A stretch of DNA of 40,294 nucleotides from Candidatus Aenigmatarchaeota archaeon (GCA_018920245.1 JAHLMS010000003.1:4588-44881), one strand, 5' to 3'; numbered from the stretch's first letter, positions 23,897 to 35,211 are shown. Notes: generated by a model from the letters alone, not told the origin. Program-made: numbers and translations.

Positions 23897-24019
23897 GGGC
23901 CCGTAGTCTAGCTTGGAACCCTTTTGCTGTGCAAAAGCGTTCACGGAAAAAGGTTGGGCAATTTAGGATCCGAGGTTCGGGACCTCGAGACCCCGGTTCA
24001 AATCCGGGCGGGCCCACCA
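23897..24019 (+). tRNA. tRNA-Pro(CGG) with a ~45-nt D-loop intron (about 23917-23961)
   Basis: GGGCCCG/CGGGCCC acceptor stem, encoded ACCA, CGAGG-TTCGGGA-CCTCG anticodon arm, GGTTCAAATCC T-loop; relaxed BHB (GCTT/GGGC helix, GGA and AAT bulges). Confidence 0.92.
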
Positions 24020-30640: not shown

Positions 30641-31327
30641 CTAACCTTGGTATTCAGCTTCGGACACTTCTCGTAGTCGCTTTGCCTTTTCCGGCCCTAT
30701 ACCTGCGACTTCGCGGAGCTTTTCTTCATCGGCTGTAATCACATTTCTTATTGTCCTGAACCTTTTCAGCAACCTCCGCGCAAGCGTTATCGATATGCCT
30801 GGCAGTCCGGAAACGACATACTCCTGCAGTTCGGCCATCGTCATGCGTGGTTTCTTCTCCCTTATGGCAATGCTTCTTTCTAGGTCTACCTGCTCACGTC
30901 TTGCCAGCCAATATATCATTCCAGCTGTTTCAGTTTCATCAGCTGTCCAGATTATCGGTATGCCCCAGTCAATGGCTATTGTTGCGAGAGCGCCTCGAAT
31001 GGCGTTCGGTGTCAGTCCGCTCCTACCATAGAGGCTGGGGCCCTCGATTATCAGCAGGGGCTTCTCAAAGTTTTCCTTCAGCGCTTTCATCTGGTCGAAC
31101 AGTCGCTTGTCGATGATGCTCGAGATAAAATCATCCGTGACCTTCCGCTCTATGCAGACACGGTCGCTAACGACATAGTCGCCGACGAGCAGCATTCTAG
31201 GCTGGAGCGTGCAATCATATGCAGCGAGCGCGTCGACCACACGGTTCTTGGCCTCTCTGTTGTCCACAAATATTAGTATGCTCTTCTTCGCTCTCGATTC
31301 AGCCAACGCCCTTGACAGTCCACCCAT
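30641..31327 (-). CDS. ERCC4/XPF nuclease-HhH protein (Hef nuclease half)
   Basis: VDNRE, GDY, CIERK..DDF, IIEG and two HhH motifs (LPGI, VAGIG). Confidence 0.94.
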   Translation of the reverse strand: MGGLSRALAESRAKKSILIFVDNREAKNRVVDALAAYDCTLQPRMLLVGDYVVSDRVCIERKVTDDFISSIIDKRLFDQMKALKENFEKPLLIIEGPSLYGRSGLTPNAIRGALATIAIDWGIPIIWTADETETAGMIYWLARREQVDLERSIAIREKKPRMTMAELQEYVVSGLPGISITLARRLLKRFRTIRNVITADEEKLREVAGIGPEKAKRLREVSEAEYQG

Positions 31328-31341
31328 ACAAATCAGTTAAA

Positions 31342-31349
31342 CTTAAATA
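31342..31349 (+). promoter_or_regulatory. TATA box CTTAAATA for the downstream ncRNA
   Basis: Same AAACTTAAATA sequence as upstream of tRNA-Pro(TGG); begins 30 nt before the first base of the terminal stem. Confidence 0.6.
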
Positions 31350-31371
31350 TATCAAAGAATTAATATAAATT

Positions 31372-31476
31372 GTTGCCTGGGAAGATTTCAGCGTTCAGAC
31401 AGAAAGTCTTCGGACTTAATGTCAGCAGCATCTCGTAAGAGAGCTTCAAAGAACATTGGACTTCGGACCGGGCAAC
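31372..31476 (+). ncRNA. Novel structured ncRNA closed by a BHB motif; predicted precursor of an 80-nt circular RNA
   Basis: 9-bp terminal stem GUUGCCUGG/CCGGGCAAC, 4-bp GAAG/CUUC helix with AUU and GGA bulges, cUUCGg and cGUAAg tetraloop arms, GAA/UAA internal loop, own TATA box. Confidence 0.75.
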
Positions 31477-31477
31477 G

Positions 31478-32998
31478 CTATAAGAATTTTTCTAATGTAT
31501 TTTCTTCCTGCATGTGTTTTAAAATTTCCTTCATTGTAGCTTCCTTGCGCCGGGCAATAAAATAGTAAGCCTCGTCGCGCGTACCTTTGGTTAGCAGGAA
31601 AATTATTTTTCCTACCTTTGTCCTACCAACACGGCCTCTGCGTTGAATCATTCTTATTTCAGATGGTACCGGTTCGTAAAATATTGCCACGTCCGCAGAA
31701 GGTACGTGCAGGCCTTCCTCGGATACTGGAGAACCGATAAGGCAATTGTACACGTCCACGTTATAGTCTCGTATGACATCTATCTGTTCCTTCTGGCTCA
31801 TGCCCTTCGAGCCGGCCTGTCCGATAAGGATGGCAGGTCTGCACCCTTCGACCCGTTTGAGGACCTTTTTGATACGCTCGATGTTGTCGCGGTAGTGACT
31901 AAAAACAATTATTTTTAGCTTCGAATTGTTTGCGAGCAGCTTCGAGACCGTTTCTGCCAGCGCGCGCATCTTCGGATGCTCCGCACCTTCCTCGTAGAGT
32001 TTCTCTACAATTTGTATAGCACGCGCTACACCCGGGTTCGCCAGCAGCCTCTTTGCAGAACGTGTATTGTCCTCGGATAGTTTTATGAAATATAATCGCG
32101 TGGCTGCTACGCTCTGCGTTTCCAAAAGTTCTAATGCATGCCAGACCTTCAATACAGTGGCCAATTGCGCAAGAATGTAGTAGCAGGCAGGGTTATGGTC
32201 TGCCTTCAACTCCTGCTGAATACGTTTCTGAGCAACCAATACATCCTTTTTGGAGCGTATGTGAAGGTTGTATTTCTTCAAGGCTTCTAGCGTATCTCTG
32301 AGCACACCTTTCAAAGCATCCTGCGCGTTTTTCATCTGTAGAGGTAGCTCGACCTTGATCCATTCGGTTTCAATCTGCTTGACGTACGGCGTGACGTCAG
32401 CATCAGCCTCGGTTCGTATCTCAACAGCCTCGATGAAAAGATTTTTTCTTATCTCGTTGATTATGATTTCATTGCTCCCCGGACTTGCTGTTAGGCCGAG
32501 GATTCGAGGATTGCTGGCATCTTCGATATATCTCTTTGCGACTGCTGGATAGGCGTATTTTTTGACAGACCTATGGCATTCGTCAACAACGAGCACCGAA
32601 TAGTTGCTCAGGTCAAGTATGCCGCTTGCAATATCATGCTGTATGCATTGTGGGGTTGATATAATGATTCTGGCTGACTTGTATAGTCTGCTGCGCGCAT
32701 CAGGTTTGATCTTGCCTGTTATGAGTACGATGTCTTCTTCCGGTAGGTTGAAGGCGTTCTGAAATGCTTTCTGATGCTGCGCGCAAAGCGGTCGCGTTGG
32801 TGCCATAATCAGCGCGCGAGAGTCGTTGAACTGTTTCAACCTCTCCGCTGCAAGCAATATCGCTATCGCCGTTTTGCCAGTTCCTGTCGGTAGGACGCAG
32901 AGCGTATTCTTGTTCAAAACCGTTGTTAATATGTTCTTCTGATATTCACGCTCCTCTACGGTCTCTGGCTTGAGAAGGGGGTGGCTGACGAACGGCAT
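31478..32998 (-). CDS. hef: Hef/FANCM-like SF2 helicase (helicase half of Hef)
   Basis: REYQ, LPTGTGKT, PTRPL, DECH, LTASPG, YEPVPSEIR and QRRGRVGR motifs; C-terminal PIP-like ENTLEKFL. Confidence 0.94.
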   Translation of the reverse strand: MPFVSHPLLKPETVEEREYQKNILTTVLNKNTLCVLPTGTGKTAIAILLAAERLKQFNDSRALIMAPTRPLCAQHQKAFQNAFNLPEEDIVLITGKIKPDARSRLYKSARIIISTPQCIQHDIASGILDLSNYSVLVVDECHRSVKKYAYPAVAKRYIEDASNPRILGLTASPGSNEIIINEIRKNLFIEAVEIRTEADADVTPYVKQIETEWIKVELPLQMKNAQDALKGVLRDTLEALKKYNLHIRSKKDVLVAQKRIQQELKADHNPACYYILAQLATVLKVWHALELLETQSVAATRLYFIKLSEDNTRSAKRLLANPGVARAIQIVEKLYEEGAEHPKMRALAETVSKLLANNSKLKIIVFSHYRDNIERIKKVLKRVEGCRPAILIGQAGSKGMSQKEQIDVIRDYNVDVYNCLIGSPVSEEGLHVPSADVAIFYEPVPSEIRMIQRRGRVGRTKVGKIIFLLTKGTRDEAYYFIARRKEATMKEILKHMQEENTLEKFL

Positions 32999-33050
32999 GA
33001 TACTTTTTTAAAACACAAACTTAAATACGTTCCAAATACAAATAACTTTC

Positions 33051-33230
33051 GGGCCCGTAGTCTAGCTTGGAGCCCCTTTCTTTTCCCGAAAAGAAAGGCC
33101 CTCGGGTTCAAAGAAAAGGGACGAGCAATAGGATTCCAGCCTTGGGGCACTTCTTTGCCTGATGGCAAAGACATGCACTAGAAGAGCAGGAAAGCTGGTG
33201 ACCTGCGTTCAAATCGCAGCGGGCCCACCA
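33051..33230 (+). tRNA. tRNA-Pro(TGG) with two introns (D-loop about 33071-33128; canonical 37/38 at 33147-33192)
   Basis: GGGCCCG/CGGGCCC plus ACCA; CCAGC/GCTGG anticodon stem with CT-TGG-G; BHB CTTG/CAGG with GGG and AAA bulges; D-loop BHB GCTT/GAGC with GGA and AAT bulges. Confidence 0.92.
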
Positions 33231-33267
33231 TAGAAAAGCATAAATGTTCTCTATACTTTCTTTTGGT

Positions 33268-33888
33268 ATGCACGGAAAATTTCTTGTCATAGAGGGAATG
33301 GACGGCTGTGGCAAATCTACACAGGTCAAGCAACTGGTAAAACTTCTAACGAAGAAAAATATACCATTCCATTTGACAGAAGAACCTTGGACAAAGGGGC
33401 TCAGGCCAATAATTAAAGAGCTTATCTCCTCTGGCACGAAGCTGGATGATGCAGCCCTGGATGCTTTGTTATATACAGCCGACAGGCGCCTGCATATAAA
33501 AAAGGAAATAGAACCTGAGCTGGCTGCTGGCAAGCTCGTCATTTGCGACAGGTATTATCATTCCACGTTCACTTACCAGCAGGTGCAGGGCATCGAATTC
33601 TCATGGTTGCGCGAGATAAACAGATTTTCGATGAAGCCAGACATCACAATAATATTTGATGTGCCACCCGAAACTGCCATCGAACGCCTAGTAAAAGATG
33701 ACAAACGCAAAACATTTGACAAATTTGAGAAGCTTGAATTTTTGAAAAAATTGCGCGCAGCATACCTTGCTCTGCCGGCATTGCTGAAAGACGAAAAGAT
33801 TGTGGTCATTGATGCCAATAGGCCACCGGACAAAGTGTTTGAGGACCTCAAACTCGTGTTGGTCCGCGAACTTGAACTGAAGCTTTGA
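33268..33888 (+). CDS. tmk: Thymidylate kinase
   Basis: IEGMDGCGKSTQ, LLYTADR, ICDRYYHS and KPD motifs. Confidence 0.96.
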   Translation: MHGKFLVIEGMDGCGKSTQVKQLVKLLTKKNIPFHLTEEPWTKGLRPIIKELISSGTKLDDAALDALLYTADRRLHIKKEIEPELAAGKLVICDRYYHSTFTYQQVQGIEFSWLREINRFSMKPDITIIFDVPPETAIERLVKDDKRKTFDKFEKLEFLKKLRAAYLALPALLKDEKIVVIDANRPPDKVFEDLKLVLVRELELKL

Positions 33889-33927
33889 TTCAAAATATAT
33901 TTATCCTTTTGCATGCATATAGCGCGA

Positions 33928-35211
33928 ATGGTAAAAATATCCTATATTGAAAAGGTTAACGCCAAGTCTCCTCCTGACATATCCTATATTTTTAACACCG
34001 ACTCTTTTGTCATTCGGGCGCTTGCCGCGAGCTTTTCGCAGAAATTGAAGCTAGAAGAAGATTGGAAAAAAACGTACGAATATTATAATGAAAACCCAGA
34101 AGAGGCCAAAGAATATGTTAACAGAGTGGTCAAAGGTTACGGCCACAATATACTCCAGGAGATAGATTATGATGCTATTGTCTTTGACGGAATTTCAAGA
34201 TTTGCTACACTTTACTTGTGGAGAAACATAAATACACCAAATGAAACTTATGGTGCTGGTATTGAAACATCCTTTCGAATAGCAAAACCTACAAAATATC
34301 GTGGGGAAGTAGAAGAAATTTATCTTAAATGCCTTGAAGCATATGAAGAATGCTTGAACCGCAATATTCCACCCCAAGATGCACGCTATCTTATTCCAAT
34401 GGGCGCAACAACACGGATGTTGATATCTGCAAATTCAAGGTACTGCAACAAAATAACAAAAGCGGCAGCACAGTGCCCATTACCTGAGCTCCAAAAGATA
34501 TCTAAAAGGTTGAAACAGATTGTTAAAAAAATAGGTTGCGAGACTGATGAAAAAGTGCCTTCTAAATGGGAGTTGTTTGGGGATTCTCAAGAAAAAGATG
34601 TTTCCATCGATATATTCGGTAAGAGCAATGATCCCTTTAGCATTTCCCTTTCAGCTTACATCCGCGGAAGTCTTTCGATGTACGCGGAGCTTGTGCGCCA
34701 GCGGCAGTTGCGCTGGAATATAGAACCTGTAAGCAGGATTGCCGAAAAAGGAAGATTTGTAATACCACCAAGTTTTGACGAAGATGTAAAGAAAATATAT
34801 AAAGAGATAGCGAAGAAAGCTCACGACAATCAAATGGATTTGCTGAGAAAAAAAGATCCTACGTTTGCTTATTATTTGCTTATGGGTCAAGAGGCGACTG
34901 CAGACGTCTATGCGCATAGTGCCGGAGCATTTGAGCTGTCACAAGCCAGGACATGCGGCACAGCGCAATGGGAAATCCGAAATTTTGGCACAGAAGTTGC
35001 GAAGAAACTTGCAAACCTCGGTTATGAGAAAAAGGTTGGACCAAAGTGCTGGAGAGAAGGTATCATCTGTACCGAACCCAATACTTTCAAAACAAAATAC
35101 AACAAATGCCCAGTTCTCTCAAAGAGGACATCTGGCGAAAAATTGAAACTCAACGAAGCATTAGAATTGCTAAAAACAGAATATGAAGTATTTGAGGTCC
35201 AGATTAGCTAA
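33928..35211 (+). CDS. thyX: FAD-dependent thymidylate synthase, tandem-domain type
   Basis: YGHNI, GISR, ETSFR, PPQDARYLIP, ELVRQRQ, AQWEIR and GPKC motifs; directly after tmk. Confidence 0.82.
   Translation: MVKISYIEKVNAKSPPDISYIFNTDSFVIRALAASFSQKLKLEEDWKKTYEYYNENPEEAKEYVNRVVKGYGHNILQEIDYDAIVFDGISRFATLYLWRNINTPNETYGAGIETSFRIAKPTKYRGEVEEIYLKCLEAYEECLNRNIPPQDARYLIPMGATTRMLISANSRYCNKITKAAAQCPLPELQKISKRLKQIVKKIGCETDEKVPSKWELFGDSQEKDVSIDIFGKSNDPFSISLSAYIRGSLSMYAELVRQRQLRWNIEPVSRIAEKGRFVIPPSFDEDVKKIYKEIAKKAHDNQMDLLRKKDPTFAYYLLMGQEATADVYAHSAGAFELSQARTCGTAQWEIRNFGTEVAKKLANLGYEKKVGPKCWREGIICTEPNTFKTKYNKCPVLSKRTSGEKLKLNEALELLKTEYEVFEVQIS

Follow-up and report, generated by a model that had tools for sequence, protein, structure and literature searches.

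A lineage-restricted family of small structured RNAs beside the split Hef gene of Aenigmatarchaeota, with the bulge-helix-bulge geometry of a candidate splicing endonuclease substrate

The known substrates of the archaeal tRNA-splicing endonuclease (EndA), with their bulge-helix-bulge (BHB) motifs, are tRNA introns, the processing stems of rRNAs, a few mRNA introns, and one permuted SRP RNA. Here we describe an RNA gene located between the two halves of a split Hef gene, a member of a noncoding RNA family that has not been described before. The family is lineage-restricted: it is found in one order of the Aenigmatarchaeota, with a few matches in the rest of the class. Both the RNA family and its fixed position in the split Hef gene are new, while the route by which it would be processed is of a known kind.

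Among the closest described systems is the SRP RNA of Thermoproteus tenax, which the available text of Plagens et al. (2015; PMC4731332) presents as circular, permuted, and dependent on EndA. As far as that text goes, it resembles our family in being a stand-alone noncoding RNA gene, not an intron, whose termini form the EndA site. It differs in being the universal SRP RNA and in that its circularization was seen by RNA-seq, whereas the family described here is known from genes alone. In the Aenigmatarchaeota lineage, unlike the T. tenax case, the SRP RNA is a separate gene. With the stems of 16S and 23S pre-rRNAs and with tRNA introns the family shares the order of outer helix, 3-nt bulges, 4-bp helix, and inner helix, with the excised part as the product, and EndA and RtcB would act on both. 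In contrast to these substrates, the product here would be an orphan RNA of approximately 80 nt from a gene that has a promoter and a terminator to itself, no function can be recognized for the “exons,” and the copy that we started from has a 2-nt 5′ bulge.

Two other comparisons are instructive. Like our family, the small RNAs of Nanoarchaeum equitans, as presented in the accessible part of the literature, come from a DPANN archaeon in which a small RNA gene with a box A and a T-stretch lies at the split point of a protein gene, and some of them are circular. The layout of box A plus T-stretch, which the available text of PMC3491384 gives for tRNA and sRNA genes of N. equitans, matches that of the family. 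However, the N. equitans RNAs are there described as C/D box sRNAs that are not flanked by a BHB; our family has no C/D boxes, and its position at the Hef halves is conserved across many genera. The metazoan tricRNAs are stable circles made by the tRNA splicing endonuclease and RtcB (PMC4536317, in the portion available), but they come from true tRNA introns, whereas no tRNA body surrounds the BHB of the family.

The window, by which we mean the whole stretch of 40,294 nucleotides analyzed here (GCA_018920245.1, JAHLMS010000003.1:4588-44881), contains a 150-bp gap (31328-31477) separating two minus-strand ORFs, a nuclease ORF that starts at 31327 and a helicase ORF whose stop codon is at 31478-31480. 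The nuclease ORF (30641-31327) has ERCC4 and HhH domains (Pfam and NCBIfam) and matches positions 564-780 of the 781 positions of the NCBIfam model “Hef nuclease” (268 bits); the helicase ORF (31478-32998) matches positions 3-508 of the same model (589 bits). These matches identify one ORF as the helicase half and the other as the nuclease half of a single split Hef gene, and together with the ORF coordinates they confirm the gap between Hef halves given in the preliminary description. For an RNA gene on the plus strand of the gap, the nuclease half is the divergent neighbor and the helicase half the convergent one. Four sequencing runs, all of DNA and all from one hot-spring study, contain the stretch, and no RNA run does. 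The sole substitution between their contigs and the window is A31442G, in X4 at low depth, which leaves U31431 paired, as U·G.

The RNA itself occupies 31372-31476 on the plus strand. Upstream of it lies a TATA/box A-like promoter element, AACTTAAATA (31340-31349, plus strand), 13 nt from the nuclease start codon. A TATA-like box recurs in the family: in 20 of 27 copies it begins 29-31 nt ahead of the first paired base. By analogy with the tRNA-like sequence discussed below, transcription of the window's gene would start at approximately 31372, the first base of the outer stem. A second AT-rich box (31360-31369, minus strand) is a candidate TATA of the divergent nuclease gene and is found again approximately 12-16 nt before the outer stem in many homologues. 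Downstream, a run of five T (31487-31491, plus strand), inside the 3′ end of the convergent helicase ORF, is the likely terminator; a run of at least four T is present within 18 nt 3′ of the stem in 15 of 27 members. These comparative data strengthen the earlier proposal of a stand-alone plus-strand RNA gene with its own promoter. It had also been proposed that the TATA box is identical to that of a nearby tRNA gene. The 10-mer AACTTAAATA does occur exactly twice in the window, at 31340 and at 33018, the second copy being 24 nt upstream of a tRNA-like sequence (33051-33231) of 181 nt with a 7-bp acceptor stem, a T arm, an encoded CCA, and large insertions. However, the tRNA identity of this sequence is a reading by eye, since it is missed by ARAGORN, which reports no tRNA anywhere in the window, by Rfam over the whole window, and by the Rfam tRNA model applied to 33030-33250.

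The plus strand of 31370-31480 folds at -43.4 kcal/mol (z -4.98; none of 200 shuffles as good), compared with -33.8 kcal/mol (z -2.99) for the minus strand. The parts of the RNA can be read from the outside in. An outer, or processing, stem of 9 bp (31372-31380 with 31468-31476, by sequence, fold, and family alignment) is followed by a 4-bp central helix, GAAG (31381-31384) with CUUC (31461-31464, also by family alignment), by a 5′ bulge of two nucleotides (A31385, U31386), and, on the other side, by the 3-nt 3′ bulge GGA (31465-31467). By the canonical BHB rule EndA would cut after 31386 and after 31466, and the predicted excised core is thus the 80 nt of 31387-31466. It comprises an inner stem (31387-31396 with 31451-31460, interrupted by a C31392/A31455 mismatch) and a three-way junction with two hairpins. 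Hairpin A (31398-31423, from the fold and the family alignment) has a cUUCGg loop and the conserved apex GUCUUCGGAC; hairpin B (31427-31445) has a cGUAAg cap with a GUAA loop, and its length and sequence vary in the family. The conserved junction strand UUCAAAGA, taken from the consensus of 27 sequences, is at 31445-31452, and the stop codon of the helicase ORF is 2 nt past the outer stem. Much of this had been anticipated: the outer stem, the GAAG/CUUC helix, the GGA bulge, and both hairpin caps are all present, and fold and comparative data support the three-way-junction core. The 5′ bulge is an exception. It had been given as three nucleotides, AUU, but is effectively two, with U31387 pairing to A31460 in the sole register that gives a good inner stem; the BHB of the window is therefore a relaxed one. 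The minimum free energy fold of the window's RNA does not contain the isolated 4-bp central helix.

We delineated the family with covariance models. A BLAST search with the 121-nt region finds a syntenic copy, 84% identical, in G001, which is of the same genus as the window's genome (G000), and partial matches in G005 and G032. A first model (R1), built from four sequences and used with a cut-off of E ≤ 0.01, matches 23 of the 42 genomes of the order (Aenigmatarchaeota), with 27 copies in total. A second model (R2), rebuilt from these 27 copies, adds G004 and G008 and brings the number to 25 of 42. Covarying homologues, for which the preliminary description had proposed such a search, are thus found. 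In a class-wide sample R2 matches 20 of 151 genomes, 16 inside the order and four outside, and among these four G145 alone is strong (65.5 bits). Most carrier genomes have a single copy; G000 has one, and R2 with filters off gives no further copy in the window.

In the 27-copy alignment, 90.5% of the cells at paired positions form standard pairs (shuffled mean 73.1%, with none of 500 shuffles reaching the observed value; slid-partner controls at most 50.4%), and 31 of 37 base pairs change on both sides; because the alignment used for these counts had been fitted to the model's own structure, the counts favor that structure. RNAalifold, making its own prediction from the same 27 rows, returns both stems, outer and inner, along with the apices of the two hairpins, and 17 of its 20 pairs show compensatory changes; its consensus lacks the isolated 4-bp central helix. 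Every part of the outer stem covaries (9/9 pairs change on both sides; 93.7% of cells pair). In the inner stem 93.0% of cells pair and six of nine pairs change on both sides, and in hairpin B, whose loops are GNRA, UUCG, or others, all seven pairs do so. Eight homologues folded singly give this same architecture, with z from -2.75 to -7.81. Cells with G·U or U·G outnumber those with A·C or C·A by 118 to 20, of 899, which identifies the plus strand as the RNA. We have very little doubt that this is a genuine structured RNA gene. Over the whole window, a search of Rfam with the linear sequence gives no match, whether at the gathering score or with E ≤ 0.5, and for 31300-31520 it gives only chance-level matches at E ≤ 10, in agreement with the earlier statement that the RNA matches no recognized family; a description of the family is likewise absent from Rfam 15 and from the main texts of the literature searched.

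Sequence conservation is concentrated in the core. Family members differ hardly at all in the apex of hairpin A, GUCUUCGGAC, and also conserve the junction strands CAG-A, UCAG, and UCAAAGA, while the outer stem covaries fully without conservation of its sequence. Such a distribution would be expected of an RNA whose product is the excised core. A specific protein or RNA partner is suggested by the conservation of the junction and of the hairpin apex. Two details of the fold that had seemed distinctive are local. A GAA/UAA internal loop, likened to the UAA/GAN motif, is present in hairpin A of the G000 copy, but in the family alignment G000 alone has it, and G001 and the others are paired there. 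Similarly, the cUUCGg loop that ligation of the core ends would create is predicted only in G000 and G001, which are of one genus, whereas other members would form varied 7-nt loops that open with the pyrimidine-rich strand of the central helix (CCUY). In several members (L025, L023, and others), hairpin A contains CUUUGA in its 3′ strand, to which the conserved junction strand UCAAAG is complementary, so that an alternative pairing, and hence a conformational switch, is conceivable there; this complementarity is absent from the window's own copy.

How often does the family have the geometry of an EndA substrate? We scanned for a strict motif (3-4-3, outer helix at least 4 bp, inner helix at least 5 bp) and for a relaxed one with bulges of 2-4 nt. 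The strict motif is present in 12 of 27 copies, always at the homologous place, compared with 10 of 2700 shuffled sequences, and the relaxed motif in 20 of 27, compared with 95 of 2700. (These scans supersede an earlier one with helices of at least 3 bp, which was too permissive, being positive in 182 of 1080 shuffles and giving several off-site matches.) Seven of the 27 have no BHB even by the relaxed rule, and in some of these the outer stem is weak or absent. Of the 27 copies in the model alignment, 26 have a 3′ bulge of 3 nt; a 5′ bulge of 3 nt is found in 12, of 2 nt in 10, and of 4 nt in five. The central helix (alignment columns 14-17 and 146-149; window 31381-84 and 31461-64) pairs in 91.6% of cells, with three of its four pairs changing on both sides. 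The bulges sit 3′ of the central-helix strands, which is the handedness of the canonical 37/38 BHBs of pre-tRNA introns, and the predicted excised length in the 12 canonical members is 73-102 nt. As for the window's own copy, it has the 4-bp helix, the 3-nt 3′ bulge, and the correct handedness, and it is flanked by helices on both sides (hBHBh′; outer stem 9 bp, inner stem 9 bp plus one mismatch), both of which covary. Hence a BHB flanking the core, as first proposed, is conserved with covariation in the family, but the window's motif, with its 2-nt 5′ bulge, is a relaxed example of it.

On balance we lean toward the view that the gene encodes a dedicated EndA substrate, in which a core of approximately 80 nt is excised from a transcript of approximately 110 nt and is most likely circularized by RtcB. 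We infer transcription, cleavage, the cut sites, and circularization, and picture them as follows. The primary transcript, of approximately 110 nt, would start about 25 nt downstream of the TATA/box A and end at the T-run. Its ends would form the covarying outer stem, in the manner of a processing stem, followed by the BHB and then by the three-way-junction core. EndA, encoded by two tandem subunit genes, would cut both bulges and free the core of approximately 80 nt (31387-31466), which would carry a 5′-OH and a 2′,3′-cyclic phosphate. RtcB would then ligate these termini to form a circle, a reaction that it also carries out on archaeal introns, pre-rRNAs, and the Thermoproteus SRP RNA. Function would reside in the core, with the apex of hairpin A and the three conserved junction strands, and the ligated “exons” would be a hairpin of approximately 30-45 nt, set by the transcript ends and without sequence conservation. 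Cleavage by EndA is likely, and the balance tips somewhat toward the circle as the main product. If this is true, there exists a conserved, free-standing RNA family whose sole recognizable feature is that it is built for excision, and probably for circularization, by the tRNA-splicing machinery, and the role of that machinery extends to the production of a dedicated small RNA in DPANN archaea with reduced genomes. With the RNA, its junction, and the enzyme genes all defined, these predictions can be tested directly.

The enzymes that this route calls for can be sought in the genomes. G000 encodes a splicing endonuclease as two tandem EndA genes of 174 and 180 amino acids (L056:1264-1788 and 1793-2335, contig C18, plus strand; tRNA_int_endo and endA models), which correspond to the N- and C-terminal halves of the 350-position two-unit EndA model. 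According to the available text of PMC5829648, relaxed BHBs are cleaved only by EndA types with a specific inserted loop. RtcB was not found in G000, a genome that is 89% complete; it is present in all five RNA-carrying relatives tested, including G001. Nearly all tRNA matches in G000 span 92-188 nt, and its 5S rRNA (L021:1498-1684, contig C19, minus strand, approximately 2.0 kb upstream of the window start and flanked by two intron-containing tRNA genes; 50.1 bits) has a 74-nt insertion in the loop of helix III. An intron-like insertion in a 5S rRNA is unusual. From these tRNA spans and the 5S insertion, G000 is rich in introns and plainly uses EndA heavily.

Cleavage need not lead to a circle. 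EndA may cut at the BHB and the mature product still be linear, either never ligated or reopened after a circular intermediate. There is precedent in the archaeal 16S and 23S rRNAs, which in the established view, as given in the available text of PMC12918454, are excised at BHBs and relinearized, and the covariation of the outer stem without sequence conservation is like that of a processing stem. However, a second processing signal cannot be seen within the core, its two ends would be kept by the inner stem in a position suited to ligation, and RtcB generally circularizes excised BHB RNAs, according to the same text. We consider a linear product fairly unlikely.

An alternative in which EndA plays no part is that the RNA is an uncut linear sRNA whose BHB-like internal loops bind a protein or are purely structural. 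The departure of the window's own motif from the canonical form and the members without even a relaxed BHB speak for this alternative, and one further feature fits it: in the central helix the 5′ strand is always made up of purines (GRRG) and the 3′ strand of pyrimidines (CYYY), with pairs that almost never flip. We know of no need for such a strand bias in BHB recognition; its effect would be that the 7-nt loop of the excised circle contains a CCUY-type sequence. On the other side, the 3-4-3 geometry with the correct handedness is approximately 100-fold above shuffles, the central helix covaries, and the lineage is plainly a heavy user of EndA. An uncut sRNA is therefore, in our judgment, unlikely, and we retain the dedicated EndA substrate as the preferred reading.

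The strongest contextual fact, absent from the earlier reading, is that placement divergent from the Hef nuclease gene is conserved across families of the order. The Hef nuclease ORF and the best RNA copy are divergently oriented, with the RNA no more than 150 nt from the start of the ORF, in 18 of the 25 carrier genomes (G000, G001, G003, G004, G006, G011, G015, G016, G019, G022, G025, G030, G031, G032, G035, G037, G039, and G040). In nine of the 18 the 3′ end of the helicase gene is within approximately 50 nt of the RNA 3′ end, and in six more the helicase is 0.4-1.3 kb off on the expected side. In G010 and G036 the RNA is 2.7-3.5 kb from the nuclease gene on one contig. Copies away from Hef are found in G005, G013, G008, and G145, and as extra copies in G019 and G032, next to unrelated neighbors (P-type ATPase, permease, S6e, adenylosuccinate lyase, Trm5). 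At 13 nuclease loci, in genomes without the RNA or without the RNA there, R2 with filters off gives no convincing copy, and G025 and G017, labeled as one genus, differ in its presence. The pairing with the XPF/Hef nuclease gene may reflect ancestry and interleaved signals, or a functional link. It makes the split-Hef gap a clean case for studying the link between small RNA genes and gene fragmentation in DPANN archaea, an idea that has been raised for Nanoarchaeum equitans.

This arrangement invites the proposal that the main role of the RNA is to regulate Hef, as a cis-antisense RNA in the helicase-nuclease spacer that overlaps the helicase 3′ end, or through promoter coupling in a bidirectional promoter region shared with the nuclease gene. 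The divergent placement close to the nuclease start, the nearby helicase 3′ end in nine genomes, and the T-run inside the helicase ORF all point in that direction. However, the copies away from Hef (G005, G013, G145, and the paralogues of G019 and G032) keep the full structure, and an antisense role needs no conserved junction, hairpin apex, or BHB. Moreover, in G017, G027, G007, and G021 the two Hef halves are neighbors with no copy of the RNA there, so the RNA is not needed for a split Hef. Regulation of Hef as the main role is thus quite unlikely. In G021 an open frame was suggestive of a fused Hef, but an in-frame stop separates the halves and we rejected a fusion. We also rejected a minus-strand BHB intron whose removal would fuse the Hef halves: in the reverse complement the bulges have the wrong handedness relative to the central helix, the G·U excess given above speaks against that strand, and the two ORFs share a frame in only some genomes. 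Separately, the Hef nuclease gene of G019 (contig C7, 74884-75378 and 77032-77193) is interrupted by approximately 1.65 kb, possibly an intein, within an open frame of 811 amino acids, and the RNA gene there still abuts the N-terminal fragment of the nuclease.

In G032 and G019 a unit of approximately 135-146 nt, promoter plus RNA, is duplicated with 86-91% identity between unrelated flanks. Near these paralogous copies we also observe a repeat of approximately 40 nt common to the loci of the two genomes (L045:3073-3112 versus L046:1774-1735 and L045:3071-3112 versus L047:1327-1369; 91-95% identity). The duplications raise the question of mobility. One form of the idea, which we regard as unlikely, is that the RNA is an autonomous BHB-bounded module of approximately 145 nt that propagates as a unit, is lodged in the Hef linker or spacer, and yields a circle made by EndA and RtcB with a cellular role. 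Since the RNA is constantly paired with the XPF/Hef nuclease gene, that role could be one of branched-nucleic-acid partner or regulator of the XPF/Hef nuclease. In that case a class of free-standing “introns without exons,” with an influence on gene architecture in DPANN archaea, would have to be counted among EndA substrates. In the other form, the RNA is an element bounded by a BHB, either selfish or a relict, that was inserted in the Hef spacer as an “intron without a host gene” and has no cellular function of its own. The duplicated unit of approximately 146 nt in G032, at 91% identity between unrelated flanks, and the similar one in G019 would fit such an element, but the junction strands and the apex of hairpin A are strongly conserved across families, most genomes have a single copy, and there is no similarity between the family and the tRNA and 5S insertions of G000. 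We therefore consider a functionless element very unlikely.

Finally, it is exceedingly improbable that the RNA is a diverged, reduced, or permuted form of a tRNA, 5S rRNA, SRP RNA, RNase P RNA, or C/D box sRNA: although the SRP RNA model (Archaea_SRP, RF01857) has no match in G000 and permuted BHB-flanked genes exist in archaea (PMC4731332, in the text available), the SRP RNA is a separate gene that scores 153 bits in G001 and exceeds the cut-off in 29 of the 42 genomes of the order, co-occurring with the family, and RNase P RNA (55 bits), 5S rRNA (50 bits), and tRNAs are elsewhere in G000, which excludes all four. Comparison of the linear sequence 31300-31520 with the known models gave no tRNA, C/D, or other meaningful Rfam match at E ≤ 10 (snoZ5 scores 13.7 bits, E = 8, on the wrong strand), and neither box C (RUGAUGA) nor box D (CUGA) can be read in the family consensus.

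Two minor observations concern other parts of the window. The tRNA-like sequence at 33051-33231 (plus strand, approximately 181 nt) has a counterpart at 23897-24019 (plus strand, approximately 122 nt), with the first approximately 20 bases in common and an encoded CCA in both. The counterpart also has large insertions and is missed by ARAGORN and by the whole-window Rfam search; its 3′ part alone scores, at 23.2 bits, in a genome-wide tRNA search. An ORF of 432 amino acids at 33913-35211 (plus strand) matches the ThyX (Thy1) domain in two stretches and adjoins a gene for thymidylate kinase (33244-33888).
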